The notes under the pieces: generated by a model
Seen by the model: the letters and a program-made list of their open reading frames with translations, nothing else
Databases searched by the model: none
Told to the model about the DNA's origin: nothing
Program-made: the position numbers and the translations under genes
Shown here: in pieces, positions 1,474 to 24,586 of the stretch
Layout of the letters: the number at the start of each line of letters is the position of its first letter
How positions within the stretch are numbered: position 1 is the stretch's first letter
NCBI GenBank assembly: GCA_045047115.1
Contig: JASFYR010000009.1
Location: 1-64,000 of the forward strand
Origin: Sulfurospirillum sp.
GTDB lineage: Bacteria > Campylobacterota > Campylobacteria > Campylobacterales > Sulfurospirillaceae
Reading direction: 5' to 3'
DNA length: 64,000 nt

Positions 1474-1752
1474 TTAAGTAAACATGATAAGTGCATTTTC
1501 TCCCAAGACTTTCTTTTTTGTTCTAACTAAAAAGTGATCCCAGACTAGTGTTCTTTTTATAGTTCCAAATGGATGTTTTACAATAGAACTTCTTAATTTT
1601 ACTATTTTTTTTGCTTGTGGTGTTGCCATCTTTTTATTGTAGTTGTCTATAATGTTTTCATGCTCCCACCTGTATACTTGTTTATTAGGTGTTTTATCTG
1701 ATAAACAGTTTTGTTTTAGTGGACATACTTTTATATACTGGTACTTTATCAC
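1474..1752 (-). pseudogene. IS1182-family transposase fragment
   Basis: CPLKQNC...RSSIVKHPFGTIKRTL.WDHFLVR...V.GENALIMFT; both ends missing. Confidence 0.8.
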
Positions 1753-1998
1753 TCTTGAGAGCTTTTTTAACTGTATTTCTACTTATACCTAAAAGCTCTG
1801 CTATTTTTCTTGTTCCTAGCTTTGGATTTTTAGCTTTGATATTTCCTGTCAAGTGACATGCTAATACTTACCTAATCTTCCATTTTTAACACTCCTGTAT
1901 CCTTCTATTGTTTTTTACAACAAAAGTATAGTTTATTTACTACACAGGTGGGTCAAAAGTTTTCAAAAAAGTGGGTCAATTTTCAGTCAAAAAAAACA
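1753..1998 (-). mobile_element. IS21-family left end with broken istA N-terminus
   Basis: Minus strand begins TGTTTTTTTTGACTGAAAATTGACCCAC with repeated TTGACCCAC; then an IstA-like HTH GTRKIAELLGISRNTVKKAL preceded by an in-frame stop and a small insertion. Confidence 0.7.
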
Positions 1999-1999
1999 C

Positions 2000-3370: not shown

Positions 3371-3535
3371 AAATGGCTTATAAAAAATACTTTTTATATA
3401 AATAAAATAGAAAATGATATAATTGTAATGAAAATTTTATAAGGTCAAAGAGTTTTGCTAAAAAATGAACTTTTGTTCACTTAATATAATATATTCAGAC
3501 ACAATAAAAATCTTTAATTATGGAGAAACTTAAAT

Positions 3536-4663
3536 ATGCAAGCAGCTTTAAATGAAGCAAAAGATTTAATGAATCTGAAAAATAAAATATTAGAAAGTGA
3601 TGCACATGAATATAAATTACAAATAGCTTCAGCAAACAGAATTTATAAAATTGTCATATTGTCTTCTGATTATAAAACAATAACTACCCAAGATGAGATA
3701 TGGAATCTAAATAGTGGAGAATTTCAAGAAAACAAAAAAATTTCAGATGGAATATTTTTAGGTGAAAAAATTGTTATAGATGAAAATATAGACTGTTGGG
3801 TTACTTGCTTTGCAAAAATTTCAGATGGGATATATGCAATATCTGCAAAAGGTTTGAATGGATTGTCCATAATTGGTGCTCCAACTGATACATTTTTTGG
3901 ATTAGTAGAAGTAAAAAATGAAAAAATATACAAAATAATAAAAACTTTTGATAGATTTACAGAAGATAGTAGTAGCTCAGATATGGGTTATGATAAAATG
4001 GTAACCGCAATACTTATAACATCTGATAAAAATATTTTCTATACACAAGGAAGATATCTATATTACTTAAACATAAAAAACAGTAGCCTTCATATTTATT
4101 ATACTGCTCCCAAGGATAGATGGATAGAGGCTATAGCAATAACACCTGATGAGAAATATATATATTGTGCATACAAAAATTATATAGACAAGATTGATAT
4201 TTTCAATTATAAAAATGTAGAACCTTTTATAATTGAAAAAGAAGATGAAGAAAATGATATTCTTAGCATTTCAGCTACAAACGATGGAAAAGATATAGTT
4301 GTATCTTTTAAAGATATTATAAAAATATTAGATGGGATTACAGGAAAAGAAAAAATAAATTTAGTGTTTTTTAAAGATAATAAATTGCAATATAACAAAC
4401 AAGATGGATATAACTATTTAATTAATTCTTTTTATTCAAGTAGAAAACCAAGTAATATTAAATATCGAGAGTGGGTTGCATATACAAATGATGGATATTA
4501 CGATTGTTCATCCGCTGCTAAGCAATATGTAGGTTTTTTTAATGGAGATGTTTTGCTAGATAAATCAGACAATATATATGAACAAAAAAAAGTATATAAT
4601 CTTGTGAGCAAGATTTTAAAAAATGATATTGAGGATATTTATGGCAATATACTCAATATATGA
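3536..4663 (+). CDS. WD40/YVTN-like beta-propeller protein
   Basis: Repeats VTAILITSDK, IEAIAITPDEKY, ILSISATNDGKD; C-terminal EWVAYTNDGYYD motif. Confidence 0.65.
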   Translation: MQAALNEAKDLMNLKNKILESDAHEYKLQIASANRIYKIVILSSDYKTITTQDEIWNLNSGEFQENKKISDGIFLGEKIVIDENIDCWVTCFAKISDGIYAISAKGLNGLSIIGAPTDTFFGLVEVKNEKIYKIIKTFDRFTEDSSSSDMGYDKMVTAILITSDKNIFYTQGRYLYYLNIKNSSLHIYYTAPKDRWIEAIAITPDEKYIYCAYKNYIDKIDIFNYKNVEPFIIEKEDEENDILSISATNDGKDIVVSFKDIIKILDGITGKEKINLVFFKDNKLQYNKQDGYNYLINSFYSSRKPSNIKYREWVAYTNDGYYDCSSAAKQYVGFFNGDVLLDKSDNIYEQKKVYNLVSKILKNDIEDIYGNILNI

Positions 4664-5846
4664 CAAAGATAAAGCAATTAATATATTACAAAGGCTAAAG
4701 TCTCTAAAGCTTGCAATATCGCTTTTAGATAATGATGCAATAGATTTTCAAATAAACAAACTTCAAGAATTAGGTTTTAAAGGAATCAAGGATTTCAATA
4801 TATGTGATGATATTTTTAATTGTGAAGAAAAATTGTGTAAAGATATAAATAAATATATAAAAAAAATAAAAAAAGAACTAAAACTGTTTGAGAATGTAAA
4901 AGATGTTTTTGGTACAATGGAAAATGATAGATATGAATTATATGAGCTTATTAGAATAAAAAATGATTGCTTTTCTACAATTTTAAATTTTAATATTCCT
5001 TATAAAATTTTGCTTGGTAAAAAGATAGAAAAAATATTAAATACTGAAGAATTTTTGCCAGAGGATGATACACAATATTCAGAGGTTGAATTACAAGAAT
5101 TATATCAGTCTTTAGAAGATACAAACTCCGAAAAAGAAGAAGTTATAGGTATCATAAATGAAGTGGAAGAATTATCAGAAAATTATGATAATGATGATCC
5201 CATAGAAGACAATGAACCAAATCTTACCTATGAATTAAAAATTAAAAAAGACAAGTTAGAACAAAAAATAGAAAATATAGAATTTGAGATTAAAATGCAT
5301 GAGTATGAATGTTTAGAAAATGAAGAAAATAACAGTATAAATATAGATATTTTAAAGAAAAAAATATTTAACCAAGAATATCAAGAGTTAATAATGAAAA
5401 GTCGTCATCACTCTATAGAAGACATTATAGAACTTGAAACTTCATTTCATTTAGGAAATAATTATTGCCAATATCATTATAAAATATATGGGAAGCAAAA
5501 GCAAGTAAAAAAAGCAACCAAGAACTTAGAAGTTGCCTATAAAAATTTTGATATCATCTCTATAAAAAATATTATAAGAGATATTCAACATAGAGATTTA
5601 TTGAAGCTAAATCATAAAAAAATACTTAATAGAGAAAATCTACTATTTTTTGAGAAAAAATATAAAAAGTTAATTTTCAAACTTAAGGAAGAAATAGATA
5701 TTACTATGTCAAATAAGTTTTATCAAAGCATTATAACTATTAGACATATATATAAAAATGATAAATATTATAAAAGTTTAGAAGAAAAATTAATAGAACA
5801 ATACCCATATACAAAACAAATTGAAGTTGACTACCCTAAAGATTAA
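4623..5846 (+). CDS. acidic coiled-coil hypothetical protein, possibly a degenerate J-domain family member
   Basis: Long ORF overlapping the upstream gene; LQRLKSLKLAISL.D N-terminus; no HPD motif; start uncertain. Confidence 0.5.
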   Translation: MILRIFMAIYSIYDKDKAINILQRLKSLKLAISLLDNDAIDFQINKLQELGFKGIKDFNICDDIFNCEEKLCKDINKYIKKIKKELKLFENVKDVFGTMENDRYELYELIRIKNDCFSTILNFNIPYKILLGKKIEKILNTEEFLPEDDTQYSEVELQELYQSLEDTNSEKEEVIGIINEVEELSENYDNDDPIEDNEPNLTYELKIKKDKLEQKIENIEFEIKMHEYECLENEENNSINIDILKKKIFNQEYQELIMKSRHHSIEDIIELETSFHLGNNYCQYHYKIYGKQKQVKKATKNLEVAYKNFDIISIKNIIRDIQHRDLLKLNHKKILNRENLLFFEKKYKKLIFKLKEEIDITMSNKFYQSIITIRHIYKNDKYYKSLEEKLIEQYPYTKQIEVDYPKD

Positions 5847-6272
5847 ATAAATACACAATAAATATTGATGGGCATATAAAATATACAGGTGATAAACTAA
5901 AAAAATACTTTAATTAGTCATGGCATAATAAATTTACATAAAATCTTAAAATTGGAACTTTTCTAAATAACCCTAATTATTGATTTTTTGCTTTGTTTAG
6001 TAAATTATACTAAAATATAATTTATATGGCTTTGAGGGTCAATTATTGTATAAATTAAGAGTGTTATTTGAGATGAACTTTTCTTCTTTCTGATATTATT
6101 TTTACTCTATCCAATAAAATTTAACTGCTATAATTTTTTGTCAATTTTATCTGATGGACTTGTGATTTTTTTTCTTTTCTTTTTTGTGTATCTTTTTTTT
6201 GGATATCTATTTTTATTAAGATTTAAAAATAAAAAAAAGATGTGATAACTTTGTCAATTATAATTACCAGAA

Positions 6273-6551
6273 TTCCGGGGACAGGATACTTAATTATTTG
6301 TAGTATAAATTATTTATTCACCCAAATATCACTACCAGCTGGGATAGTTGTAATAGTATTTATACCTTTTGCATTACTTATGGCTGTTTGCATTACACTA
6401 TTTGGACTGTATGCACTCCATGAACTTGTAGCATTAGAATATATCCAAATGATTTTTGCATTATTAAATACAGATAAATCTGTGATAGCTAATGGTGTAC
6501 TTGCGAGTGTCCATCCTGTTGGAAAGTTCCGGGGACAGGATACTCAATTAT
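6273..6551. repeat. 25-bp direct repeat TTCCGGGGACAGGATACTYAATTAT, two copies (6273-6297, 6527-6551)
   Basis: 24/25 identical, read directly. Confidence 0.85.
6310..6523 (-). pseudogene. frameshifted C-terminal fragment of a surface/secreted protein
   Basis: PTGWTLASTP...VFNNAKIIWIY...WSAYSPN / ITTIPAGSDIWVNK*, with one frameshift and no start. Confidence 0.5.
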
Positions 6552-6734
6552 CTTTGCTCATTCCCATCATCATCGATTGGAATGACAATAGGGGTCAGTA
6601 ACAAAAAAGATAATGAGGGTCAGAGGTTTACTATTAATCAAATCACCCTCTACACGTGAAGTCCATTATAATCAAGAAAAATGGAGAGAAGTTTGCTTAA
6701 TTATTTTTGCTCATTTCCATCATCCAGATGGGAA
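6543..6734. repeat. two degenerate REP-like hairpin repeats (6543-6585, 6696-6734)
   Basis: 26/29-nt identity between 6543-6571 and 6696-6724; each continues into an ATTYCC...GGAAT hairpin. Confidence 0.6.
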
Positions 6735-6783
6735 TTTTTAGTGTTAGATGATGCTTTATGAATTTTGGCGAGTAATAAAGCAA

Positions 6784-7089
6784 TTATTTATAAATACCAC
6801 CACGATATCCGATATCTTGAATGATAGCTTCGATTATGATTTCATCGTTTATCAACTTTAGCATAATCCGAATATTGGCTTTTCTAATTCTATAAATATC
6901 ACTTATGTTCCCTTGCATCTGCTTATAATCAATATTGGTATCAATATTATATATTTTCTTTTTTATAAATTTGATAACCAATTTATCGCACTGTTCTTCA
7001 GTGAAAATATTTTGATTTTTTGCTAAAAACTTAGTAGCCTTCTTAAGATATGTAAGCTTAATATCTTTTTTCATTTTAAATATCAACAC
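6784..7089 (-). CDS. RelE/ParE-like toxin
   Basis: Basic ~100 aa protein with YRIRKANIRI...IQDIGYRGGIYK, downstream of and overlapping the antitoxin. Confidence 0.75.
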   Translation of the reverse strand: MLIFKMKKDIKLTYLKKATKFLAKNQNIFTEEQCDKLVIKFIKKKIYNIDTNIDYKQMQGNISDIYRIRKANIRIMLKLINDEIIIEAIIQDIGYRGGIYK

Positions 7090-7363
7090 TTATAATTTTT
7101 GAATGGGAAATGGTTTTATCTTCTTTGGTTCTATTTGCTAAGATTTCTTCTATCTCTTTTTGCTCCAAAGTATCATAGGCCCTTTGAAGCAATTCATACT
7201 CTTCTATACCAACTATTACAGCTTCAGGCTTATTTCTTCTTATGATTGCTATTTTATTAAACACATTTGAAGTAACTTTATCCAAGTAGCTCCCTAATGA
7301 TTTACCAAGTTCTGTGATGCCTACCATCTCGTCTTTTGCATAAGTTACCATATTATTCTCCAT
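7076..7363 (-). CDS. Phd/YefM family antitoxin
   Basis: VGITEL.K.LGSYLDKV...IAIIRRNKPEAVIV..EEYE. Confidence 0.85.
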   Translation of the reverse strand: MENNMVTYAKDEMVGITELGKSLGSYLDKVTSNVFNKIAIIRRNKPEAVIVGIEEYELLQRAYDTLEQKEIEEILANRTKEDKTISHSKIISVDI

Positions 7364-7720: not shown

Positions 7721-9679
7721 ATGCAAAGTATTTGTCGAAAAATTGTGTTATTGATTCTCTTCTCTTTATTGATGGGCACTTTATCGGTTGCGTCAGCCGA
7801 TACAATAAAGGACGAAATTGTGTTGGGAGGAGATCAGGTTGCGATTGAAAATGCGGTGGTGACAAAGAGGCCAGATATTATTTGTCAATGCAAAGATATT
7901 GATGTATCTTCGATCTCTATGGTTATGCTGGATGATACTGATATTACTGCGAATATCAAGCATACAAAAAATGGATTTGCCTACAAATCTGTTTTAATAT
8001 TGCCTGCTGGTGAACATACTCTTAGCATTTTTTATATAAAACAAGGTGAGGATGCTCAAAAAGACTATACTTTTATAACCAGGCAATCGAAAATGTTTGA
8101 AAGAGCACAGAGCGATGTAGGTATATCTGCCAATTATGAAAATATAGTAAAAAAATCAAAAAATCTTACAGGTGTAATATGGTCAAAAGCCCAAGCAGAT
8201 ATTGGGTTGAAAACTTCTCTTGGTGAGAAGAGATGGAATTATTCATTTGAGACAGATTTAAGATTTTTAGACCAGAGTTTGGCCGTACAACCTCCTGAAA
8301 TAAAAGGTATAAATTTAGCCAGTTATCTTTTTAGTGTTGATTTTAATGGTGACAATTTGCAGGCTGGGTTAAAACTTGGTGATGTTACAGCGGATGAGTC
8401 TGACTATAGCGTGCAAGGACTTGCAAGTAGGGGCGTTGCATTCAGTGCGATATACCAAAAATATGAATTGCATACTTTTTTGATGGATGGTGTGCAAAAT
8501 TATGGATGGCATGGTGGCATGGGACTTAGTGCGAGAGATAGTGATCACATATATGGAGTGTCTCTGCAGAGAACATTTTTAGAAGATACTAAGTTGAAAG
8601 TCATATATGCAAAAGGAGGTAGAGTTGGGGATGGATTTGGCACATCTTCGGAAGATTCAAGCAGTGTAGCAAGAAAAGGTGATGTTTTAGGGTTTTTATT
8701 TAATACATCTCTTATTCAAGAGAAGCTAAATCTCACAAGTGAGATTGATTTTTCCAAATTTGACCAAGACAGCAGTGATGGATTTGGGTATGAAAGAGAT
8801 AAGGCTTATAATGTAAAATTTGACGGTTCGCTAAACGAAAAGTATTCGTATAATTTGATGTATGAGTATTTGGGGCCAAAATACAACAGTATTGCTGCAG
8901 ATGGACTTGAAAAAGACAAGAGTGGCTTTTCTGGTGAACTGGATGCAAATTTCAATGACATACATGCTTTAACTTTTGGTTTTTCAAGATATAATGATAA
9001 TGTTAAAAATGACAGTACATATGCCAGAGTTTACACTACTGAGGAATCATTGAATTATACCTATTTAAAATTTGAAAATATTCCTATGAGTGCCGGATGG
9101 AATCACTCTGTGCAAAAAAGCGAACATGAGCCAAGTAGCAGTGATATAGTCGAAACGCTTACAGATACGATAAATACACAAATAGGCTACAATGTAAACA
9201 ATTGGAATTATGGACTTAGCGTGGAGTACACCAAGACAAATGACAAAAGTACGGCCGATGCTGATACAACAAGTAAGACGGTATCGTTTACTCCCGCATA
9301 CTCTATAGAAACATTCCATTTGGAAGCAAGTTTTACATTTAATCGCTCAACCAGCAAGCAAGATGTGGATACGGATACTTTTACTGTTTCTTTGGGATTG
9401 GGAGGAACTTTTTTTAGTGAAAGGGTGGGATATGATTTTTCATCGAGTTACGAAAAGAACAGACCAGATGTTGGTGACGATACATATACTTTGAGTATAA
9501 ACGGACAGATAGCATATAATTTTGTTGCACCAAAGAGATGGATGGATCATCCGATAGTGGGTATAAAGGGAGTTTATAACAATGGAAATGCCGATAGTAC
9601 AACCTCGACAGAAAATACAACAGGTGAGAGTTATAGCGTGAGTCTTTTTGTATCTATACCTCTTAATTACTCATTTTAA
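7721..9679 (+). CDS. large outer-membrane beta-barrel protein with N-terminal Ig-like domain
   Basis: Signal peptide; long run of amphipathic beta strands; C-terminal IPLNYSF (BAM-type terminal Phe). Confidence 0.7.
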   Translation: MQSICRKIVLLILFSLLMGTLSVASADTIKDEIVLGGDQVAIENAVVTKRPDIICQCKDIDVSSISMVMLDDTDITANIKHTKNGFAYKSVLILPAGEHTLSIFYIKQGEDAQKDYTFITRQSKMFERAQSDVGISANYENIVKKSKNLTGVIWSKAQADIGLKTSLGEKRWNYSFETDLRFLDQSLAVQPPEIKGINLASYLFSVDFNGDNLQAGLKLGDVTADESDYSVQGLASRGVAFSAIYQKYELHTFLMDGVQNYGWHGGMGLSARDSDHIYGVSLQRTFLEDTKLKVIYAKGGRVGDGFGTSSEDSSSVARKGDVLGFLFNTSLIQEKLNLTSEIDFSKFDQDSSDGFGYERDKAYNVKFDGSLNEKYSYNLMYEYLGPKYNSIAADGLEKDKSGFSGELDANFNDIHALTFGFSRYNDNVKNDSTYARVYTTEESLNYTYLKFENIPMSAGWNHSVQKSEHEPSSSDIVETLTDTINTQIGYNVNNWNYGLSVEYTKTNDKSTADADTTSKTVSFTPAYSIETFHLEASFTFNRSTSKQDVDTDTFTVSLGLGGTFFSERVGYDFSSSYEKNRPDVGDDTYTLSINGQIAYNFVAPKRWMDHPIVGIKGVYNNGNADSTTSTENTTGESYSVSLFVSIPLNYSF

Positions 9680-9691
9680 AAGGAGAATGAA

Positions 9692-10765
9692 ATGAAAACA
9701 ATCAAATTAATATCGATTTTTATAATAGCACTATTTCCAGCGTTGTTGGTAGCTTCTGCAACAGCATCAAAGCCATCTGTAAAGGTTGTTAGAAACACAC
9801 CATACTCTTTTTTTGAGAGATATCATCTAAGTGATGACACAACAATAGATGTGTGCGATAAGGCCACTTCTGTGCAAGGTGAATTTCAAACTGTTAGTGG
9901 GGTAACACTGGGTACCGTAGCTAAGAGTCTAATAGCAACTTTGAGTGGACCCGGACCACATGTTGGAGGTGTAAATGAATCCGTAAGAGTTCCATACAGC
10001 GTGATGAAAAAAGCACAACAATTAGGTTTAAGTGCTTTTCTCTATAACAGGAGTTTCTCTTTTACCGGGCCATCTTGTAACACAAATAATGCTCCGATTA
10101 GTATAAATATAAAGATGACAGGTGCAAGTTCTGTTGCTCTGCATGTGAGTAGAATACAGTTGTACTTTATAAATAAAAGGGCGGATATAACTGTGGATAA
10201 AAATCAAAATCTTCCACTTAGCGTTGATTTGAAAATTTATGGAAAAGGCTTGTTGAAAGGTTATTGGGAAGTTGATGGTAGAATCTTGTCCGGAGTTTAC
10301 AAGCAGATAAATTTTGGAAAAAGTATCACGCTAAAAGTCCCAAAAGTGCCGGGATTACCGACTTATGAAACAGGAACTCATAGAGTCCGTTTTGTGGTAA
10401 CTTCTCCGGAACCAAGCATATCATTGCCTCAGGCCATATACTTTGTAAAAGAACAGCCCTCCATCGTTTCTTCAACCATAAATTTAATATCTCCAAAAAA
10501 TGGTGATATATTAAATGGAGATGTGTGGGAGTTTACCTGGAAGCCGATACTTAAAACAGATACATATTTGATAGAATTTTATAAAAAAGGCGGAGATAAA
10601 CCAATGTTTTCTGCTCTAAGTAAATCTCCTGCATATACAGTACCGGGTTATATAATGAAAAAGATTTTCAACATGAGTGGAATATATAGTTGGAAAGTGA
10701 CCGGATACAACTCTCTTTCAAATCAAATAGGAAACAGCGAGACAAGAGACTTTCTGGTAAATTGA
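9692..10765 (+). CDS. exported Ig/FN3-like beta-sandwich protein
   Basis: Signal peptide; C-terminal INLISPKNG...FTWKP...YLIEFY...YSWKVTG module. Confidence 0.6.
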   Translation: MKTIKLISIFIIALFPALLVASATASKPSVKVVRNTPYSFFERYHLSDDTTIDVCDKATSVQGEFQTVSGVTLGTVAKSLIATLSGPGPHVGGVNESVRVPYSVMKKAQQLGLSAFLYNRSFSFTGPSCNTNNAPISINIKMTGASSVALHVSRIQLYFINKRADITVDKNQNLPLSVDLKIYGKGLLKGYWEVDGRILSGVYKQINFGKSITLKVPKVPGLPTYETGTHRVRFVVTSPEPSISLPQAIYFVKEQPSIVSSTINLISPKNGDILNGDVWEFTWKPILKTDTYLIEFYKKGGDKPMFSALSKSPAYTVPGYIMKKIFNMSGIYSWKVTGYNSLSNQIGNSETRDFLVN

Positions 10766-10768
10766 TTC

Positions 10769-10802
10769 AAAATATCCTTGTATTTTAACACAGGGATATT
10801 TT
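10769..10802. terminator. bidirectional terminator hairpin
   Basis: AAAATATCCTTGT...ACAGGGATATTTT between convergent genes. Confidence 0.7.
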
Positions 10803-12790
10803 TATTTTATCTCTATTGTGCTACTTTTGGATGCAGCTCCCTGGACACCATTTTCTGCTCTGTAAATAACCCTGTATAATAATTTTGCATTGCTATTGAT
10901 TTTCAAATCAGCTATAGTGGCCGTATCAGAGATATTTGCAACATATCTCCATCTGTTGTTTTGTTTTTTCTCTATTATGGCTACCATCCTTTTTGGAACA
11001 GAGGCTATCTTTATCAGTACATGTGGCACAGGTTGGCTTTTGTATGACAAGATTGGTTTTAGGGGTGTTGGGATTGATGGATTTTGGGCTACAACTGTGC
11101 GTGATTGACTAAAGCTACTTCTATTTCCACTCTTATCAACTGCCACCAACCTATACCAGTATCTTTGTCCATATTTTACAAATTTATCTACTATTTGGTG
11201 TTTGGATGCGGGTATCTTATCTCCTATGACAAGGCCTGCATCATCGGGCGATACACTTCTGATGAGTAGAAAATAGTTAATATCCCCATATGGAGGAGCA
11301 GCTTTGAAGCTTATCTTAACCTGCCCGTTATTTGGATCAATATTTGTGATATATGGAGGGTTTGGAGATATAGAATCTTTTAGCTCTACATGTATAGGTT
11401 TGCTTGGCTTGCTCTGTTTCGTATCGTTTCCGATTGTGACTATACGATAATCAAATGATCCATAAGTTGATGCACTGTATGAGTCCTCATAAAATTCATC
11501 CGGAACAACATAATTATTTAGTTGAGACCATTTTTTGGTTCCCTTTGGGCGACGAAAAACAAGATAGCCTGCTACATCTATTTTTGGTTTTTTCCATTTT
11601 AGTTTTATCTCACTTACTCCCACATCGGCTTTTAGATCTGTTATAACAGGCGGTTTGCTCTTGGAAGTAGGCACTGCCATCCTTGCATGTGAAGGTGAGC
11701 CGACTTTTCCTCTGACATTTATAGCTCTTAGCCTATAGTAGTACGCAGTTCCGCCTTTTAGATTTTTATCGGTATATTTTGTTTTGCTTTGCTTTAGTCC
11801 TTTTGGTGTTACAGCAATATAAGGACCTTTGCTTAGATATGATCTCTCAAGAAGATATCCGGCACAATAAGGACTTTGATTTTCACTCCACTCAAGCTTT
11901 ACACTCTCTTTTTCACCTTTTATTGTAATTTTATCAGGAGGCATCAATGCACTTAAATCTTCAACAAAAACTTTGATGCTCTTAGGTTTTCCCCTGTTGG
12001 CAAAAAATCCTACACTAAAAACTTTATATATCACATTTTTTTCCAAAGGGGCGTTTATATCAGTTATGATTGCTACTTTGTTTTTAAATACATTATCTGC
12101 TACGACAAGAGTTTTGTCTTTTAAACTCTCAAGGGAGCCATCGGGGTCTATTCTCTCTATACTATATCCGACTACAGGATTTTTTTTGTCAAGTTTTGGT
12201 TTTTTCCAAAGAAGTGAAACGCCATCCAATACTACAGTTGCTTTTACATTTGTCACGCTAGGAGGAAGGGGTGATTTTTTATAGGGGTTTACAGTTTTAC
12301 TTTTGCTCCAAGCTATGATTTTACCGTTTTTATCTAAGGTGCTTAGTTTATAAATCCTACTGCCTTTTGTTTTAGAGTTATCATCATATCTTAAACCCAA
12401 AGCTTTTCCGTAGTTTCTATTGGTTGCTGCATATGAACCAAAGACAAATTTGGCCAAATTTGCTCGATTTCCTTTCATTGCCCCTGATTTAATCTGCACA
12501 GCAAATTTTTCTATCTGTTTTATGTCTTTTGTGGATAGTTTAGACAAGGCATTTTTGTCTTTTGCAGGGAAAATATTATCGGCTAGAAGTGTTGTTTTCC
12601 CATTTTGTATTTTCTCTAGTCTCCATCCGCCTCTTGACCAGGTTTTGTTCGGAAGCCAAAATAACTTGATATATCCTTTGCCGTCACTATATGACCAGAT
12701 ATAAGGTTTGCTTAAATTTACTTTACCTAAAAGTTGTGTACCCAATAAAAGCCCAACACTTAAAATAAACAGTATCTTTTTCATTTTCAC
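10802..12790 (-). CDS. exported multi-fibronectin type III domain protein
   Basis: Signal peptide; about five FN3 repeats (VSLLWKKP..GYSIER, VKLEWS..GYLLER..YYYRLRAIN, IKLKWKKP..GYLVFR, YWYRLVAVD). Confidence 0.8.
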   Translation of the reverse strand: MKMKKILFILSVGLLLGTQLLGKVNLSKPYIWSYSDGKGYIKLFWLPNKTWSRGGWRLEKIQNGKTTLLADNIFPAKDKNALSKLSTKDIKQIEKFAVQIKSGAMKGNRANLAKFVFGSYAATNRNYGKALGLRYDDNSKTKGSRIYKLSTLDKNGKIIAWSKSKTVNPYKKSPLPPSVTNVKATVVLDGVSLLWKKPKLDKKNPVVGYSIERIDPDGSLESLKDKTLVVADNVFKNKVAIITDINAPLEKNVIYKVFSVGFFANRGKPKSIKVFVEDLSALMPPDKITIKGEKESVKLEWSENQSPYCAGYLLERSYLSKGPYIAVTPKGLKQSKTKYTDKNLKGGTAYYYRLRAINVRGKVGSPSHARMAVPTSKSKPPVITDLKADVGVSEIKLKWKKPKIDVAGYLVFRRPKGTKKWSQLNNYVVPDEFYEDSYSASTYGSFDYRIVTIGNDTKQSKPSKPIHVELKDSISPNPPYITNIDPNNGQVKISFKAAPPYGDINYFLLIRSVSPDDAGLVIGDKIPASKHQIVDKFVKYGQRYWYRLVAVDKSGNRSSFSQSRTVVAQNPSIPTPLKPILSYKSQPVPHVLIKIASVPKRMVAIIEKKQNNRWRYVANISDTATIADLKINSNAKLLYRVIYRAENGVQGAASKSSTIEIK

Positions 12791-12796
12791 TTCCTT

Positions 12797-15700
12797 TTAT
12801 AGACTAAATGAGCCACATACACCACCAAGTGGCCATGGTAAATCAACACATGCATGAGCAGAAACTTTTAAAGGTAGAGCTTCGGCTTTTACCCCTGCTG
12901 ATATCGAAGGACCTACGCATACTTCACAACAGCATATCTTGGCTTCAAATGCACCCTCTGCATATCCCATGATGTGTGGTGGAACTCTTATCTCAAGCCC
13001 CATATCAAGATTGCCCGATATATGACCTATGCCCGCATTTAGATAAAAAGACATACCTCCGCCGACAGCTAGAGCATGAGGATCAAGCATAAAATAACCA
13101 TTTGTATCTAGTATAACGATAAATACATGTATCCTGGGACCCTCTTTTTTGCCTGCATATATGTGCCAATCTCCGTGTCCAAAGTGCATGGTCATGGCAT
13201 CGTGTGGTATGACAAATTTAACCATACCTCCAAGATAATCCAATTTACCCTCAAGTGCTCCGTCAAAATTTCCTCCACCATATTGTATGTAGCCTTGGAA
13301 GTTTCCATCTCCTGAATGATTTGTACTTAAAAGCCAAGCTCTAAAGTCCATCCTTGCAGCTTCTCCTATCTTGATAGTCAAATCCCCATCTGTGGTGACA
13401 GTAAATTTATCCGAGCTTCCTATTCTGATTCCTGCCATAAACATATATGAGCCATCGATATCAGGATATACACTATTTATAGTGCCGGCATGTTTAAAAG
13501 CATCTACTGGAAAATTATGTCCTAAGCCACCCCTTATCTTGTAAAGATTCATAAGAGGAGGGATAAAAGGCACACCACTTTGTCCTAAACCTACAGTTGC
13601 TCTTATCAGCCAATAATCAGCTCCACCCTCGTATCCAAGTCTAAATTCTGCTTTGATGGGAGGTCCTCCATACATGGCTAAATCTACGCTTCCTTTGTAT
13701 TGATCATTTTTAGTGCTTCCTTCACCGGTGCTTGCATAAGCCGGAGTTGCAAGTGAAAAGTTGGATATGGCATCTGCCAAGTGCTCAAAGTTATTTTGCG
13801 AAATTGATGCAGTTTTGCTTTGACCGGCATCTTTTTTATAATCACATGTGACTTTTGCCTCAGCATTTGGATTACCCGCAGGAAATGCTACGGGAACATC
13901 AAATTTTGGAACTTGTGGACCAAGTGCAGAGTAAGTGTCTCCAACGATATTTAGTTTGTAACATACCGGAACGGAAACTGTTGGTAAAACTTTTGATATT
14001 GAAAAATTTGTTTTGATTGTAAAGTCAATGAGACTTTTGCCGTTTTTGGGATGAAGTTTTAAATCCGCTGCAATCAAATCAACTGTCGTTTTGCCAAAAG
14101 ATGCTTTTCCTCCAAGCGGAATCGTAGTGCTTGTTTTATCTTTAAGGAGATGAGCTCTTCCATCCATGCCAAAAATCAAGCCGTTTAACACTGCCTTGTC
14201 CGTTACGAGTGAGCTTTTGGTAGAGAAAGTAAAGGCAGTATCGCTCCAAACTCCCCATCCCACTCCTTCAAAACTTCCAAATATCAGATTATCAGCTGTA
14301 AATTTGAGGGTTTTATATGATTTGCTGATAGCCGGAGATTTTAACCCTTTGAAATTTGCTGAAGCCTCAACTCCCGGCTGACCGTCTATAAGTTGGGCAT
14401 CTCCTTTTAAGTGAGTGTCTAGCCAAGGAACTTTTACATCCATATTTTTATATATTGCTTTAAAGTTTCCGCCTTTTGTATCTATATCTATTTTGTCAAA
14501 TGAAATTTTGCCTTTTTTAAAATTTGTTGAAAAATGCCCAAGCGTTGTTTTTCCGCAAAGTCCTGTTTTGCTACCGGTTTGAGCTATGCCCCAGTCTGAG
14601 ATTTGTTTGGTATATCCATTTTGCACAAGGTCAAATGTATTTGGTGTGAGAGTGGCATTGCCTAGATGTATGCCTGTCCATTTCACACCGTTTTTTCCTT
14701 GTTCGCTACATTGTGAACCAACGCCTTTTCCATTTTTTGTATCCAAATCCAAAAGCATACTGTTGGATTTTATCCTAAATCCACTCCATCCTATAGAAAA
14801 TTCTCTCTGCTTTGTATCTTTATAGAGCCAATCACCCTCATCACTCAGTTTTGATGTGATATCTTTCCACTCAAGTGCTTTTGAAGAGCCCGGAATTCTT
14901 AGTGTGTTTTCTTGGGCGGACATATCTAATTTCAGCTCCATATCACTTTTGTTTGCCTGGCAATGTAGTTTTTTGAGTGATATCTTCATCCCGTTTTCTG
15001 TAATTTGATGAGAGAAATCCGTATCTAGAACTCCTTTTATCACATCCATACCATCAACTTTCCAATGGTCTATGTTAACAGGCAGAAGAATCTCGCTTTT
15101 ATCGCCGGCATTTAGGCTTATATCTATATCTCCTGTTCCGCTATATACTCCTTTGCTTACCTCTGTGACACTTTTTGATATATTTTTTACTGTAAATTTA
15201 TCTCCTGATTTTGTTGTGATAACAAATTTGCAAGGCTTTCCTTGTGCGTGAGGTGTGACTTTAAAATCATAAGAGCTTGATTTGACATAGTATGGTTTTT
15301 TCTTTGGAACATTTTTATATGATGGTGTGATACCTGTTGCATGTGATATAGCTTGATTTACATTTGCAACCATAGGCATACCTTTTGCCAAATGTTTTGA
15401 AGGTGAGAGAACTCCAAACTTTGCACCGCTTTTTTGTATCTGTGTAAGATATGGATTATTGATAGTATTTGAATTGAAAGCAACTCTGAGCATTTGTGGT
15501 GTTATAGTATTTGAAGCAATTTTTTGAACATGCGGTATGGCATCTGCTATCTCATTTAGCATCTCTTTTTGCGAGAGAGTTGAGGCAGTAAATGGGTCAA
15601 CCGTAGCATCTACATATAGTCTGTATTTTTTATTGATTTTGAATTTATCCAACTCTAAAACTTTTGAATCTACAGGAAAATAACTAAATGAATCAGACGA

Positions 15701-18700
15701 AGGAGTGTTGAAATTATCTTGTGTCAGATTTTTTCTCTGTTTGGATGGTCCGAGGGGTTTAGAGTATGTTCCAAGTAAAAGTTTACTATCATCCGAGCCA
15801 TAAAGAGTCCATTTGAATTGTACATTTCCTTTTCCATAGTACCTTAGTTTTGCATTTGCCTGAAGAGAGTCACAGTTTGTAAATTCGGCAGTCTCTTTAT
15901 ATTTCACCCTATTTTTGCTTATATTTTTTATGTTGCTGGTGCTTGTTGATTTTTTTGTTGATTTATTACTTAATTTATAGCCGTTTTTTACGCTACTTAT
16001 GAGCTTATTTGAGCCGGACTCTGTTGTTTTGGAACTGCTCTCTCCTCCATTTGTCTCTGCTATTGCGATACTCTCAAGATGAAGTGGTCCAGATGCTACC
16101 AGATCAGCTCGCGGATCTATAACTATCTTATGGCAATAGAGCATATAAGCATGTTTTGATATTTTAACCATATCCATATTTGGAGTCGGAAGATTACCGC
16201 CTAGTTGAAGCGTTTGATAGTATGGATCATTTTGGGATGTGCCAATTGTCTTAAAATTTGTGTTAAGTGATGCACTTTTTGTACCTGCATAGTAGTTATA
16301 TGCTGCAACTATTTGAGATGGATTGTTGTGCTGAATATCATCTTCGGGAAGCATAAAAACACGGATTTTTCTAGCACCCTGACTCAAGTAACGGTGAGTC
16401 ATAGAGTTGATTTCATACTCTTTATCAGCTTTTTTTAGATTTAACGGCTCTACTACACCGTCACCCCAGCTGATAAAGATGTTGCGAGGTCCTATCCAGA
16501 CTGCATTTGAATTGTACTCTCTGTATGCCCAAGGCGATTTTTTCAAATCAAACGAACCGGAGAGTTCTATATGATCTCCTGTATAATTCACAGTTGCCGT
16601 GACTCCAGGTTCCTTGCCTTTTCCTAGATCTAAGTTTTGGATATTTATATTTGATGTTTTATGGTCTGCCTTGCAAGTTAAACCTGTTGTGAAGTCATTG
16701 ATAGATAGAGGCCAACTATCTGATTGTTCAACCACAAAGGTGACCAATTCCATCTTTGGTGTTTTTTCTATACTTTGCTTTTGTTCTTTTTTGGCAGTCC
16801 CGTTTTTCTTGTAAGCTCTTGTGCCTATAACTTTCCAAAACAGTTTGATTTCGTTTCGGTGAGTGTTCATGTATTGATCACGGGGAGAAACATTAAAGTT
16901 ATTTGCCATATTGATATCGACGCCATTAGCTGGATAACCCACGCCACTGTTGATGTTTTTGTTTGAATGAGGATTATTGGCAGGATTTATCATTTTGGTT
17001 TTTGTTATTTTTTCGATTTTTGCACTTGAAGTTTTTTGCAATTTTTTGAAGTTTGCAATTTTATCATTGCCTTTTATCGCAAAACTGTGAGTCGGTCTTT
17101 GCATTAACTCTAAAATTTTATATACAAAGTTTGAATCTGCATGAAAAGCTTTTGTTTTTCCTAGATTTTTAGCTAAAAGTATATCACCGTTTCTGTTTAT
17201 AACCTGCAATTGAAAGTTTTCGGCAAGACCCGGATTTTCTTCTCTAAATGTAAAAACTGTCTTGTCATTGAGCTTTGGTATTCCTTTATCTTGATATACA
17301 TCTCCACCGCATCCAAATGAGCCAAATTCCGGTTTTTCGAGCAGAATTTTGCCCATAGGAAATTTAATATCCGGTGTGATTGGCTTGATTTTAAATTTTG
17401 GCATAACTTTTTTAAAAGTGACGCTTTTTTCAATCCAGCCATATAATTTAGTTTTGATAAATTTACCTACTATACTGTTTTTTATATTATATAGCAGGTA
17501 TGTTTTTCCGGTTTTGGCTTTTGTTGATACTTTTATTTTGAGTTTTATCTCTTTTTTGTTTAAAAAAATTTGGGATAAAATGGAAATATCTTTTGAAAAT
17601 CTAAAATCTAATTTTTTATTTAATTTTTTACCTTTTATAATAATATTGTATTTTTTGCCTTGTTTCCAATGACTTGGAAAGATTGAACTGAAAATGATTT
17701 GCTCTTTGTTAGAAGTTGAGACAATTGGTCTAGTTGTCACATGTACAGGTTTTATCGGTAGTAATTTTGATTTACAGTTTTTTACTTCAAATTTAAATAG
17801 TTTTTTATTGTTGTTATCATAGGTATCATGCTCCTTGATACCGTCTCTAGCTGTACAGTTTGCATTGAAGAGTAGCTTGTATCTTCCTGCTTTCCATTTT
17901 TTAGCAGAGTTTTGAGGCCATTTTAGTATGAAGGTTTTTCCTGATTTTATAGGTGGTATTTTTGCATAGCCGATTAGATAAGCAGGGCAAGAGGAAGAGA
18001 AATCTGCCGTTGTAAAACTCGTTGTTGAGCCAACTTTTGTGCATTTGACACACATGGTGCTTTTTGGAGCATCGTGATTTCCTAAATTTGCTATTTTTAC
18101 TTTTATTTTTGGGTTTTGGTTTAATCTTTTATTTGCACAAATTTTTTTAGAAAGTTTTATGTCTCCTATCGCAAAATCTATATATTCGTTTGATTTAACT
18201 TTTATAGTAAACTGCTTTTTGTTGTTGCGTGTATTTGACTCTTTCGTTTGGTTTTGATTATTTGTGAAAGTATGGGTTGGTTTTAGTTTTACGCTTGCAG
18301 TTATGTAAAACAGTCCCTCGCTCCATCTCTCTTTTGAGTTTTTGCCCCAGTATATCTTAAGAGTCCTGCCACATTTTATCGGATTTAGCATTATGTAACT
18401 ATTTAAGATTTTAGGACAAGTACCCTGTCTTGCTCTACATGTGAGTTTTAGTATCGATTTTGGGGCTTTAGCTTTTCCAATATTTGTGATGTTTAGAGAT
18501 ATTTCTCTGTTTTTACCTATCTTGCTTTTAGGCTTGATATTTGGTTTGATGCTTACCGATCTTATTGCTAAATCCGGCAGTTTGTTAGTTCTGAATTTTA
18601 TATTTTTATTTAGATGAAAACTGTTTTTATTTAGACTTATGCCACCAGTGCCACTCTTGTGCGTTAAGTCTAAAGCGTATGAAGAAAAAATACCAAGGCA

Positions 18701-18730
18701 AATTGCCAACATAAATCTCATAACCCACAT
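12797..18730 (-). CDS. giant exported protein (CARDB-like x2, IPT/PKD-like, beta-rich C-terminal half)
   Basis: Signal peptide; LPDLAIRSV...ITNIG..A..S...ESNTRNN CARDB-like pattern twice; ISWGDG; Gly/aromatic beta-rich C-terminus. Confidence 0.7.
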   Translation of the reverse strand: MWVMRFMLAICLGIFSSYALDLTHKSGTGGISLNKNSFHLNKNIKFRTNKLPDLAIRSVSIKPNIKPKSKIGKNREISLNITNIGKAKAPKSILKLTCRARQGTCPKILNSYIMLNPIKCGRTLKIYWGKNSKERWSEGLFYITASVKLKPTHTFTNNQNQTKESNTRNNKKQFTIKVKSNEYIDFAIGDIKLSKKICANKRLNQNPKIKVKIANLGNHDAPKSTMCVKCTKVGSTTSFTTADFSSSCPAYLIGYAKIPPIKSGKTFILKWPQNSAKKWKAGRYKLLFNANCTARDGIKEHDTYDNNNKKLFKFEVKNCKSKLLPIKPVHVTTRPIVSTSNKEQIIFSSIFPSHWKQGKKYNIIIKGKKLNKKLDFRFSKDISILSQIFLNKKEIKLKIKVSTKAKTGKTYLLYNIKNSIVGKFIKTKLYGWIEKSVTFKKVMPKFKIKPITPDIKFPMGKILLEKPEFGSFGCGGDVYQDKGIPKLNDKTVFTFREENPGLAENFQLQVINRNGDILLAKNLGKTKAFHADSNFVYKILELMQRPTHSFAIKGNDKIANFKKLQKTSSAKIEKITKTKMINPANNPHSNKNINSGVGYPANGVDINMANNFNVSPRDQYMNTHRNEIKLFWKVIGTRAYKKNGTAKKEQKQSIEKTPKMELVTFVVEQSDSWPLSINDFTTGLTCKADHKTSNINIQNLDLGKGKEPGVTATVNYTGDHIELSGSFDLKKSPWAYREYNSNAVWIGPRNIFISWGDGVVEPLNLKKADKEYEINSMTHRYLSQGARKIRVFMLPEDDIQHNNPSQIVAAYNYYAGTKSASLNTNFKTIGTSQNDPYYQTLQLGGNLPTPNMDMVKISKHAYMLYCHKIVIDPRADLVASGPLHLESIAIAETNGGESSSKTTESGSNKLISSVKNGYKLSNKSTKKSTSTSNIKNISKNRVKYKETAEFTNCDSLQANAKLRYYGKGNVQFKWTLYGSDDSKLLLGTYSKPLGPSKQRKNLTQDNFNTPSSDSFSYFPVDSKVLELDKFKINKKYRLYVDATVDPFTASTLSQKEMLNEIADAIPHVQKIASNTITPQMLRVAFNSNTINNPYLTQIQKSGAKFGVLSPSKHLAKGMPMVANVNQAISHATGITPSYKNVPKKKPYYVKSSSYDFKVTPHAQGKPCKFVITTKSGDKFTVKNISKSVTEVSKGVYSGTGDIDISLNAGDKSEILLPVNIDHWKVDGMDVIKGVLDTDFSHQITENGMKISLKKLHCQANKSDMELKLDMSAQENTLRIPGSSKALEWKDITSKLSDEGDWLYKDTKQREFSIGWSGFRIKSNSMLLDLDTKNGKGVGSQCSEQGKNGVKWTGIHLGNATLTPNTFDLVQNGYTKQISDWGIAQTGSKTGLCGKTTLGHFSTNFKKGKISFDKIDIDTKGGNFKAIYKNMDVKVPWLDTHLKGDAQLIDGQPGVEASANFKGLKSPAISKSYKTLKFTADNLIFGSFEGVGWGVWSDTAFTFSTKSSLVTDKAVLNGLIFGMDGRAHLLKDKTSTTIPLGGKASFGKTTVDLIAADLKLHPKNGKSLIDFTIKTNFSISKVLPTVSVPVCYKLNIVGDTYSALGPQVPKFDVPVAFPAGNPNAEAKVTCDYKKDAGQSKTASISQNNFEHLADAISNFSLATPAYASTGEGSTKNDQYKGSVDLAMYGGPPIKAEFRLGYEGGADYWLIRATVGLGQSGVPFIPPLMNLYKIRGGLGHNFPVDAFKHAGTINSVYPDIDGSYMFMAGIRIGSSDKFTVTTDGDLTIKIGEAARMDFRAWLLSTNHSGDGNFQGYIQYGGGNFDGALEGKLDYLGGMVKFVIPHDAMTMHFGHGDWHIYAGKKEGPRIHVFIVILDTNGYFMLDPHALAVGGGMSFYLNAGIGHISGNLDMGLEIRVPPHIMGYAEGAFEAKICCCEVCVGPSISAGVKAEALPLKVSAHACVDLPWPLGGVCGSFSL

Positions 18731-21560: not shown

Positions 21561-22841
21561 CTACTTATCAGAGTCAAATAGCATTTTGGCTCTGATTTTT
21601 TTATATCTTTTTGAAGTCATTTTTTTTATCTGTTTTTTGGTCAGTTTTGAGCCGTTTATGATATTGTTTGGTAGTTGCATATCTAAGACTTCATAGCCTG
21701 TTTTTTTTGGGTTGATTATCAAAGGATTGTTGTGGCAACTCTCGCAGGATTTTGCTCTCTTGCCTGTGGTGTGAGGAGAATAGGGGAGCCATACTTCTAT
21801 CTTTCTGCCGTCTATCTTGTTTATATCATCTAAAATCATTTTACCATTTTTATCTCTGTAGCTTATGCGATACTGAAAGAGAGGGCGCACTATCATAATC
21901 CTGCCATCCTTTGAATTTGCCAGATTAAAATGTTCCCATCTTTTATATCTGTAGCCACTGTACCAGATACCGTCTTTAAACTTGTGCGTTATCCAATCAG
22001 GCATCTTTGGTGGAATTTTTCTTTTGCTTTTTAGTGCTTTGTGTAAAAAATTTGTCAAATATCCATCTTCTTGCAGTGTCAAGTTTCCCCACTTTTTATA
22101 ATCGCTTGTGTCATCTCTAAAAACAGAGAGTTCATAGGAGTTGTTGTTCCAAGTAGAGTGACAAGTGGAGCAGGCTAATTTTGTGTGATAAGAGGTGTGG
22201 TTTTTTTTACTCAATTTTTTATGACAATCCCTGCAACTTGCTTTTTTTATGCCAAGCATATCATCTTTTTTATGACAATCAATACAAGTCATGCCAAGTC
22301 GATAGTGTATATCGCTACTTAGATGATGAAAATCTATACCGTATTTTTTGGGTGGATATCTGCCGTCTTTTGTGAGCGGTGCTCGATAACTTTTGTCATA
22401 ATCTTTTGGGAAAAGTCCTAAATAATCTCCGCCTACAAACTCTTTGTTGTGACAGCTAAGACACTTTTTCATATTTATTTTACTTTTTTGGCACTTGCCT
22501 TGTTTTTGGTGAGGAGTATGACAGGCTAAACAATCTTTGCCTCTATTCATGCCTTTTTCACCGCTACCTTTGTTGTTTAGATGACACTTTAAACACTTTC
22601 TTCTTAAAAAATCATCCACTAAGTCTTTTGTATTTTTTATCTTGGTTTTTGGTAGTGGAAGAGTTTGGATTGTTACATTGCTATCTTCTATACCCCACGC
22701 AATTCTTGTGATATTTATGGCTTTTTTAAGAGTGTAGTGCAAACTTTTTTTGCAGTTCTTAGTAACTTTGGGATGGCATTTTATACAATCATTTGCAGAT
22801 AAGAAAAGTGCTATGAATAGCAAGAGAGCTATTTTAGGCAT
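21561..22841 (-). CDS. octaheme c-type cytochrome (ExtO-like)
   Basis: Signal peptide and 8 CXXCH motifs. Confidence 0.85.
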   Translation of the reverse strand: MPKIALLLFIALFLSANDCIKCHPKVTKNCKKSLHYTLKKAINITRIAWGIEDSNVTIQTLPLPKTKIKNTKDLVDDFLRRKCLKCHLNNKGSGEKGMNRGKDCLACHTPHQKQGKCQKSKINMKKCLSCHNKEFVGGDYLGLFPKDYDKSYRAPLTKDGRYPPKKYGIDFHHLSSDIHYRLGMTCIDCHKKDDMLGIKKASCRDCHKKLSKKNHTSYHTKLACSTCHSTWNNNSYELSVFRDDTSDYKKWGNLTLQEDGYLTNFLHKALKSKRKIPPKMPDWITHKFKDGIWYSGYRYKRWEHFNLANSKDGRIMIVRPLFQYRISYRDKNGKMILDDINKIDGRKIEVWLPYSPHTTGKRAKSCESCHNNPLIINPKKTGYEVLDMQLPNNIINGSKLTKKQIKKMTSKRYKKIRAKMLFDSDK

Positions 22842-24586
22842 GATGTTTTTCCGCTATAAAAGAGTTTTTTTGATTTTTTAAAATCAACATATATCTTATC
22901 ACTATATTTGTTATGGCAAATGATACACTTATATGCTCCTATTATTTTGTTCAGTTCACCTGAATTAAAGCTTCTAGCCTCTTTTCTTGAAGTGCTTTGA
23001 AATTGTTTGCCTTTTGGTGATACAAAGGCATCTATCGGGTAGGAAAAAGGCATACCACTTTTTGTTGAATCATAAATCGGAGTAAATGATATGTTGCCAT
23101 CTTTTATATCCAAATTTCCTCGCCCAAGTCCCAAGGAGGCAGGATTAAAGTGACAGTCGACACAAGTTCTTGAAGTTTTTTGAGTAGTATGCGGATCCCA
23201 TCCTGCCATTGCTAATGAGTGAAATTGTTTAACTTTTTTATCTTTAAATACAGTGCCAATAACTTGACATCCAGGAGCAAAAGGCATAATTTTTTTATTG
23301 TAACCAATTCCTAGAGATGGCGATTCAAATCTTAAAAAACTTCTTAACTCTTGCCATTGTCCTTTGGTAACTTTCTTTTTTACCCAATCAAACTGCTTTC
23401 CATTTTGAAAATATATCTCATGACAACCATAACAGCTTGGTGCCCATGAGCTATGACAAGCTGAACAATCAAGCCTTTTGTGAATTGCTAGAGTATGATA
23501 TGGTTTGTCACTCATTTTGGGCAAATTAAACTTTTTACCATCAATTTTTCTATAAAAATCAGTTTTATTTCCATCTTTTTGTACATTGTATAGCGGCGAG
23601 TTGAATTTTTTGGTATAAGCTATGATTTTTGGCTCAGGTACTTTTTCATTTGTATCCGCTAGCGTAACAGCAAGGGTATTTGCCTTTTCAAAGTGGGGTT
23701 TATGACAGTCTTTGCACTTGATATCTTCGGCCTCTTCCATGTGATAGTGCTTTTTACCGTCTCCCATCACACCTTTTTCGGTATGGCAATCTATACAACT
23801 CATGTTTGCACTCTTATGGTGTATGTCATCAGGAAGATTATAATAAAATCTTCTGCCGTCACTCATCTTGTGTGTGAAATCTCCATGTTTGTAAGGCGTG
23901 CCGTAACCCGCACTCTCAAAAATACCCTCATAAGAGAGTCCTATGCGGTTTGAGCGATTATGGCATTTGAGGCAGTTTTTTGTGGGAATTGCCGTAGTGA
24001 ATTTAGCATGTAAGTTGCCTTTTGTTTTTGAGCTTCTATGACAGTCACTACATCCACCACCTCTTGCAATTTTTTGATTTTTAAAAATTTTTTCATCTTG
24101 ATTGATATGACAAGCCGCGCAGAGTTTTCTAAAGTGGCTTTGTGCGAGCGAGATATTTGTATCTCCTCTTATGTCTGCTATGCCTATAGTTGAGTTCAAC
24201 TCTTTGCTTTCACCCCATTGGTATTTCAAAACATTTAGGATTCCACTTTGGGATTGCATCATGGATTTACTTACTCTTTTTATTATTTTTTTGTGGCACT
24301 TGATACAAAATATAGAGGCATGTTCGAGTCTTGCAGGGTTTAAAACCATGCCTTTGTGAGCATCTGCTTTGTCTGTTGCCCATCTGTTTCCGCCATGACA
24401 CGAGGCACAGCCAAATATCTCTTTTGGATGAGCATGGTCTATATCGCTCATATTGCTATGACAACTCATGCATTGGTCCGGTTTTGTCATCTTTGGAGTT
24501 TTTTTTATGCCGTTGGAAAAGATAGAATACACTAAAAGTGCTATAGATATAAGAGCTAGTATAAAGAGTATATTTTTATATTTCAT
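22829..24586 (-). CDS. dodecaheme c-type cytochrome (ExtM-like), membrane anchored
   Basis: 12 CXXCH motifs; start set to ATG 24586, which overlaps the cytochrome b stop (ATGA). Confidence 0.85.
   Translation of the reverse strand: MKYKNILFILALISIALLVYSIFSNGIKKTPKMTKPDQCMSCHSNMSDIDHAHPKEIFGCASCHGGNRWATDKADAHKGMVLNPARLEHASIFCIKCHKKIIKRVSKSMMQSQSGILNVLKYQWGESKELNSTIGIADIRGDTNISLAQSHFRKLCAACHINQDEKIFKNQKIARGGGCSDCHRSSKTKGNLHAKFTTAIPTKNCLKCHNRSNRIGLSYEGIFESAGYGTPYKHGDFTHKMSDGRRFYYNLPDDIHHKSANMSCIDCHTEKGVMGDGKKHYHMEEAEDIKCKDCHKPHFEKANTLAVTLADTNEKVPEPKIIAYTKKFNSPLYNVQKDGNKTDFYRKIDGKKFNLPKMSDKPYHTLAIHKRLDCSACHSSWAPSCYGCHEIYFQNGKQFDWVKKKVTKGQWQELRSFLRFESPSLGIGYNKKIMPFAPGCQVIGTVFKDKKVKQFHSLAMAGWDPHTTQKTSRTCVDCHFNPASLGLGRGNLDIKDGNISFTPIYDSTKSGMPFSYPIDAFVSPKGKQFQSTSRKEARSFNSGELNKIIGAYKCIICHNKYSDKIYVDFKKSKKLFYSGKTSCLK

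Follow-up and report, generated by a model that had tools for sequence, protein, structure and literature searches.

Four adjacent genes at positions 7,721–18,730 of a 64,000-nucleotide stretch from Sulfurospirillum sp. (contig JASFYR010000009.1 of assembly GCA_045047115.1; the whole stretch is hereafter the window) encode a predicted outer-membrane barrel, an immunoglobulin (Ig)-like protein, a giant exported protein and a chain of FN3 domains. An earlier note, made from the sequence, had suggested an undescribed surface or secretion system in which the barrel exports or anchors a large adhesin, filament or effector-delivery scaffold built from the other three proteins. What does such a barrel hold, and which of its neighbors does it serve?

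Here, we describe these genes as a candidate for an undescribed, barrel-centered envelope module. On balance we favor a stalled-export anchor, in which the barrel forms a sheath around the middle domain (D2) of the 357-residue Ig protein and the giant and FN3 proteins are likely an optional client. The note's reading is partly supported, in that the genes form an undescribed module of the envelope. No family is assigned to the barrel or the Ig protein, and the literature searched holds no matching description of a barrel-Ig-giant-FN3 system, most subscription journals lying outside that search.

The barrel and its Ig partner

The barrel gene (7721–9679, + strand) encodes 652 amino acids with a signal-like N terminus, a small beta domain (residues 45–121; 7853–8083, + strand), predicted strands and a terminal Phe. 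Its AlphaFold2 model (mean predicted local distance difference test, pLDDT, 82.8) contains 26 strands (residues 128–651) behind the small N-terminal domain, and F652 is invariant in 16 homologues. Pfam offers no family for the barrel (0 families at E-values up to 0.1) or for the Ig protein, and searches of solved-structure sequences with the barrel, the giant, the giant profile and the Ig profile returned nothing useful, the best value (E 0.008) matching domain D1 of the Ig protein to phage tail Ig domains. By structure, VIA-align places MtrB first (Z 17.6, root-mean-square deviation (rmsd) 5.3 over 452 aligned residues) and ushers next (Z 15.2), while Foldseek ranks the usher FimD first with a TM-score of at most 0.38.

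The Ig protein gene (9692–10765, + strand) encodes three beta domains, D1, D2 and D3, which are predicted to thread through the barrel. Complex prediction for the two proteins scored 0.86 in three of three runs, against 0.00 for the best of three controls, with at least 91% of contacts shared between runs and a partner pLDDT of at least 82. Among solved complexes, 116 of 157 reach the score mark applied, as do 2 of 215 mismatched pairs, a calibration that is only rough with the custom alignments used here. Predicted contacts run round the lumen and touch 20 of the 26 strands at alternating positions. D2 (residues 141–256; 10112–10459, + strand), the most conserved part of the Ig protein (0.58 vs 0.44 for D1 and D3), supplies 63 of its 92 contact residues. 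The lowest-error contacts in the complex model join barrel loop 304–314 (8630–8662, + strand), which is disordered in the lone barrel model and only moderately conserved, to the first strand of D2 (residues 153–158), and the barrel's N-terminal beta domain also touches the Ig protein. The earlier note had named complex modeling as a check; for the barrel and Ig protein the model supports binding, with D2 predicted inside the lumen, and on these models the barrel probably holds D2 there.

Loop 304–314 follows strand 9 and should therefore be extracellular. The N termini of outer-membrane barrels are periplasmic, a general topology that would place the small N-terminal domain of this barrel in the periplasm. 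From these two points we infer that D1 lies outside, D2 in the lumen and D3 in the periplasm; the model itself gave no pairwise D3 contacts. The order that this topology requires appears in about 30 Acidobacteriota loci, where IPT-D2-D3 and the barrel form one fused protein, with IPT-D2-D3 ahead of the small N-terminal domain.

In the mechanism we propose, Sec is the likely route of all four proteins across the inner membrane, because each begins with a signal-like N terminus. D2 would enter the barrel lumen and pair with loop 304–314, leaving the Ig protein lodged across the outer membrane as a stalled-export anchor with its D1 on the outside. D3, held in the periplasm against the barrel's N-terminal domain, would halt full export. 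In relatives, cargo placed before D1 (PKD, He_PIG or IPT arrays) would be displayed outside the cell, and a subtilase placed after D3 would remain periplasmic.

The best structural match, MtrAB (PDB 6r2q), offers a precedent for such trapping: in the published description (PMC7198977), MtrA is held inside the 26-strand MtrB by 'stalled' excretion, and a 26-strand sheath around a folded partner is what is predicted here. The two barrels differ in sequence (9% identity; no MtrB/PioB family match and no PDB sequence match for ours), and the partner here is an Ig-like chain rather than a multiheme cytochrome; none of the four proteins contains a CXXCH motif. Chaperone-usher ushers pass folded Ig-like domains, and FimD and PapC resemble our system in being wide barrels with that kind of substrate. 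They have an internal plug and 24 strands rather than 26, and neither the four proteins nor the window contains an usher, chaperone or pilin family, nor are there such conserved neighbors. Type V barrels have 16 strands (Omp85) or 12 (autotransporter), against 26 here. The pairing of a barrel with a large exported beta-rich protein recalls type V systems, and the Acidobacteriota fusion, with Ig domains N-terminal to the barrel, is autotransporter-like; our proteins have no POTRA, ShlB, TPS or autotransporter family match.

Distribution of the pair and of the giant

Synteny of homologues elsewhere had been set beforehand as the check on the four-gene system, and across the giant loci it is found. 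We collected 120 giant homologues with 29–86% identity across the C-terminal 808 residues, and a profile of this region matches 499 clusters (50% identity). A giant locus set was built from the best 80 of 171 matches; the 71 giant loci from the genome scan belong, by record title, to Campylobacterota, Desulfobacterota, Nitrospirota, Acidobacteriota, Myxococcota and Proteobacteria. An FN3 gene lies directly after the giant in 61 of the 61 loci with at least 300 nt downstream, and a barrel is present in 47 of the 57 with at least 3.5 kb upstream (52/71 overall). Co-occurrence across phyla, which the earlier note had proposed as a check, is strong. Of the ten loci without a barrel, five belong to genomes that carry one elsewhere and three break off at the giant or close to it. 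A divergent barrel-like gene (E 0.005) lies upstream in L062, and for L070 no barrel was found. No further conserved neighbor gene was detected in giant-centered loci. Gene order varies (barrel-Ig-giant-FN3, giant-FN3-barrel-Ig, or convergent); the convergent layout that the note described is present here and in L057, and as most loci are colinear it is a local feature.

Two giant homologues (L022 and L076) come from records titled Chloroflexi and Eubacteriales, where misbinning is possible, since L076 has a barrel. Among cultured species, Nitrosophilus kaiyonis and Sulfurimicrobium lacus carry the giant, and Hippea maritima carries the barrel. Within its own phylum the giant region matches 2 of 251 genomes, one being this genome and the other carrying a distant type, and the barrel matches 3 of 61 relatives' genomes. 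The module is rare among relatives and patchily distributed.

Seen from the Ig protein, the picture changes. In metagenomic Ig loci (the best 80 of 117 matches) a barrel is present in 58 of 80, and in 53 of the 55 with at least 600 nt upstream; a giant is present in 2 of 80 and in none of the 13 with wide flanks. Among 201 sampled genomes of the phylum of G063, nine have a strong Ig match, eight a strong barrel match, each beside an Ig gene, and three the giant region, all three with a barrel and D2. A same-genus genome (G009, 94% complete) retains intact barrel and Ig genes, and the giant C-terminal region was not found in it. Because kin are not independent, all such locus and genome counts are descriptive, with no statistical test. 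This nested distribution shows that the barrel and Ig protein are the core, that the giant and FN3 protein are an optional add-on, and that the four genes are not one fixed quartet. The earlier idea of a barrel that serves the giant within a three-protein scaffold is thereby revised: a syntenic, barrel-centered envelope module is there, and its constant partner is the 357-residue Ig protein rather than the giant.

Upstream of the barrel-Ig pair in G009, a 158-aa open reading frame (ORF; L193:11866-12342) consists of three separated pieces of the giant, a deletion remnant, and a 614-aa multi-CARDB-like protein is encoded downstream of the pair.

The Ig family is itself modular. Its 75 complete ORFs comprise 21 plain forms, 23 without D1, 20 with N-terminal extensions (the named domains being PKD and He_PIG), 8 with a C-terminal subtilase (Peptidase_S8) and 3 with both. 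Upstream of barrel and Ig-subtilase genes we observed an ECF (extracytoplasmic function) sigma factor together with an anti-sigma-like protein whose C-terminal domain resembles a subtilase propeptide (12 and 14 of 80 loci; L091, L094, L095, L098, L099, L101, L111, L127 and L189). A barrel-tethered periplasmic protease in trans-envelope signaling is one possible interpretation, and we found no description of such ECF-linked signaling in the literature. Beside barrel-Ig genes we also saw small CARDB/IPT proteins encoded in runs, each with a signal peptide and a Pro/Lys-rich leader (L189:6351-10026; L111, L112, L113, L120 and L127); they are candidate clients.

The giant, its D2 copies and its beta body

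How, then, would a giant come to a barrel whose lumen is predicted to be filled by another protein? The giant gene (12797–18730, − strand) encodes 1977 residues, with a variable N-terminal Ig-like arm, a conserved middle and a C-terminal beta region. The adjacent FN3-chain gene (10802–12790, − strand; 662 residues) bears out the earlier assignment as a multi-FN3 protein (PF00041, E 1e-12) and encodes a very basic product (isoelectric point (pI) 10.0). The giant's arm contains two CARDB-like domains (residues 50–322; 17765–18583, − strand), in place of which homologues have IPT, PKD, He_PIG or D2. The CARDB label given by the note falls below the cut-off in this protein (18.1 vs 22.7 bits) and is clear in homologues; an IPT-like match in the family scan is also sub-threshold.

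With a D2 profile trained without giants, 17 of 197 full-length giant homologues showed canonical D2 close to their front (E down to 1e-27), and many had a second, weakly matching copy mid-protein (E 1e-3 to 1e-5). The same search found no canonical D2 in the window's giant, which has a weakly matching, degenerate D2-like segment at about residues 950–1050 (15581–15883, − strand). Outside the plain Ig protein, D2 occurs fused ahead of barrels, as the leading domain of other giants, and next to cargo of the subtilase or Ig-repeat kind. Giants of 4611–5144 aa that start with D2 and have no Pfam match were observed at L182:3748-17679, L184:2742-16577 and L186:1347-16781; they lie two genes after the barrel, with a 151–166-aa D2-only gene between and the FN3 gene on the other side. 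By eye, two short D2-only proteins have a lipobox-like Cys.

In our proposal the giant likely engages the same barrel via a D2-type domain, which some homologues bring as their own copy; in this locus the free Ig protein or the degenerate internal copy would serve instead. We consider it probable, with less assurance than for the lumen-held D2, that the giant uses this barrel. More tentatively, at a little short of even, we suggest that these loci represent an unnamed class of outer-membrane export or display systems, spanning at least six phyla, in which 26-strand barrels recognize a portable lumen domain, D2, and D2-bearing or D2-binding proteins are anchored or exported. With the same reserve, the D2-linked cargo of this class would include Ig-repeat arrays, subtilases tied to ECF signaling, and giants of 1600–5100 aa.

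The same observations can be read as a true secretion channel, with D2 as a targeting signal and the giant, the FN3 protein and neighboring CARDB proteins exported whole as folded Ig-domain chains; free Ig or D2-only proteins would plug the idle pore, and the exported chains would make up an adhesin or scaffold at the surface, a refined form of the note's own view. In favor of this reading, ushers rank next after MtrB among the barrel's structural matches, D2 directly follows the signal peptide in the 4611–5144-aa giants with a separate D2-only gene before them, giant-less barrel-Ig loci are flanked by varied signal-peptide CARDB/IPT proteins, and the barrel is acidic (pI 4.8) against three basic partners (pI 9.6–10.0). 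However, a D2 fused in front of a barrel could not leave, the flanking CARDB proteins are mostly without D2, no conserved energy source or chaperone gene lies nearby, and a beta body of 800 residues is unlikely to pass folded. We regard whole export as rather unlikely, though as the most serious competitor to the stalled-export anchor.

That beta body raises possibilities of its own. The model of the giant's conserved region (residues 1160–1977; 12800–15253, − strand) is nearly all beta (pLDDT 81.4) and ends in an amphipathic beta-meander (residues 1675–1977) with strong hydrophobic/polar alternation. Foldseek found no fold match for it (TM-score at most 0.15). By VIA-align, its top 45 structural matches are all membrane barrels (Z up to 13.7): the last 370 residues resemble barrel walls, mostly at rmsd 10–15, and wide barrels fit patches at 4.7–5.7 over about 200 residues. 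In addition, the last residue of 131 of 202 giant homologues is a Leu that belongs to an amphipathic strand. The meander could on this evidence insert into the outer membrane itself, as a partial, hybrid or oligomeric barrel that anchors the giant, the separate barrel being only an assembly partner or an independent Ig anchor. Against such self-insertion, which we think improbable, stand the high rmsd of the barrel fits, the nearly constant company of a barrel, and a second type of giant in which the same meander is internal, with about 480–720 residues after it.

Because barrels fitted only at rmsd 10–15, the meander is probably, on these models, an open sheet. Such an amphipathic sheet might form an AsmA/TamB-like conduit for hydrophobic cargo such as lipids, docked at the outer membrane by the barrel-Ig pair. 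The 50 VIA-align matches listed for the region include no AsmA, TamB or VPS13-type chain, though such chains may still match beyond that list. This lipid bridge appears equally improbable: no AsmA or TamB family match was found in the four proteins or in 47 giant-family members. Moreover, the giant begins with a cleavable-type signal followed by Ig domains, with no inner-membrane anchor leading into a groove, and the patchy distribution is unlike that of a core lipid pathway.

Two further suggestions of the earlier note found no support. Effector delivery is unsupported because none of the 202 full-length homologues carries a tail of more than 100 aa past the conserved beta region. The proposed TANFOR association fails at the level of the domain, TIGR02542 being absent from the four proteins, 11 Ig proteins and 24 giant homologues; genome searches for TANFOR and TpsB were blank, with their controls silent too. 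In the accessible part of the source on Bacteroidota TANFOR toxins (PMC7073777), these proteins are defined by an N-terminal domain and toxin tails, export by the type IX secretion system is proposed, and a linked barrel is not mentioned. Both systems have large proteins exported by Sec, and in both FN3 and PKD domains are encoded in the neighborhood. The giants described here lack the TANFOR domain and toxin tails (0/202), have no conserved immunity gene, the downstream gene being FN3 in 61 of 61 loci, and belong to other phyla.

A distant second locus in the same genome links the meander to a named family. It is split over two contig ends (G000:C4:5601-10320, L181, and G000:C38:46416-54425, L082), is whole in G013, and encodes a 276-aa CARDB protein, a 524-aa barrel, a giant that starts with FecR, carries DUF6603 and ends in a long tail, and an FN3 protein. 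This second giant scores just above the DUF6603 (PF20248) cut-off (27.7 vs 27), and the window giant's meander aligns with its DUF6603 region (hhalign 99.3%, E 7e-21), a connection that is indirect, via the second giant. PF20248 has no direct match in the window giant or the 47 members; an Atlas feature for the giant has DUF6603 as top match (0.94, the family being on 23% of members), which is a lead only. The literature searched has no mention of DUF6603.

Under the stalled-export anchor, the giant's variable Ig-like arm would face outward, while its amphipathic body, together with the FN3 chain, would serve as a scaffold on the periplasmic side; this is the weakest step, and the conserved body may be periplasmic. 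In weighing the anchor we counted in its favor the intact barrel-Ig pair of G009 beside a giant remnant. Several observations pull the other way. The internal D2-like segment of the window's giant is weak (hhalign probability 34%, E 4e-4) and unmatched by the D2 profile, and in the anchor topology hardly any part of a giant that starts with D2 would lie outside, so that full export fits such giants better. In the five genomes noted above the barrel gene lies apart from the giant, and for L029 and L070 none was found. The divergent barrels of L054 and L055 have no D2 in their loci, and D1 is missing from the 23 Ig-family ORFs already counted. The genome also has four secretins, a possible alternative way out. 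Finally, the complex score may reflect likeness to solved barrel-plus-insert complexes, yet no solved sequence relative was found.

At L054:17004-19609, the divergent barrel is without the N-terminal domain and is followed by a 294-aa exported protein that resembles, by eye, the 276-aa protein of L181; it is perhaps a second kind of barrel partner.

The locus in its genome

All four ORFs and their lengths, with the barrel's terminal Phe, are present as the earlier note reported, and they form two tight convergent pairs with intergenic gaps of 12 nt (barrel-Ig) and 6 nt (FN3-giant). Shine-Dalgarno-like motifs precede all four genes; for the FN3 gene the probable start is an ATG that lies two codons past a GTG. 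A 13-base-pair hairpin lies between the pairs (10769–10802, no strand assigned). That it is a terminator common to both is only plausible, because it was called on the + strand alone and terminator-like sites in the region are no more numerous than expected (6 observed vs 7.9); promoter and terminator counts are both at chance level. No RNA holder is listed for the locus.

Of the 30 window ORFs of at least 200 aa, 28 were scanned for families, two overlapping opposite-strand ORFs being omitted. As the note had stated, type I secretion, TpsB, autotransporter and pilin families are absent from the scanned ORFs, which encode toxin-antitoxin, respiration, signaling and housekeeping functions and a transposase fragment, and no secretion machinery. 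Just left of the barrel gene (118–7363) lies a low-GC segment (0.23–0.30) with two toxin-antitoxin-like pairs, the transposase fragment and three unnamed ORFs. Farther right (21561–40311) are multiheme cytochromes, one with an MtrC/MtrF-like domain match (38008–40311), and a polysulfide-reductase-like operon. Despite the barrel's MtrB likeness these genes are probably unrelated to it, because distant barrel loci do not have them as conserved neighbors. Recent horizontal arrival was considered and has no compositional support, though the distribution is patchy: GC is 0.363 for the locus and 0.348 for the genome, and GC at third codon positions is 0.285–0.288, against 0.26–0.33 in four neighboring genes. 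No plasmid match was found for the giant.

Few dedicated routes lead proteins across the outer membrane, and those few have names; a family of barrels with a portable domain that binds in the lumen would, if true, be one more. It would also explain hundreds of unannotated giant and Ig-repeat proteins, given the 499 clusters that match the giant's C-terminal profile, and its predicted interface involves one barrel, one 115-residue domain and one loop.

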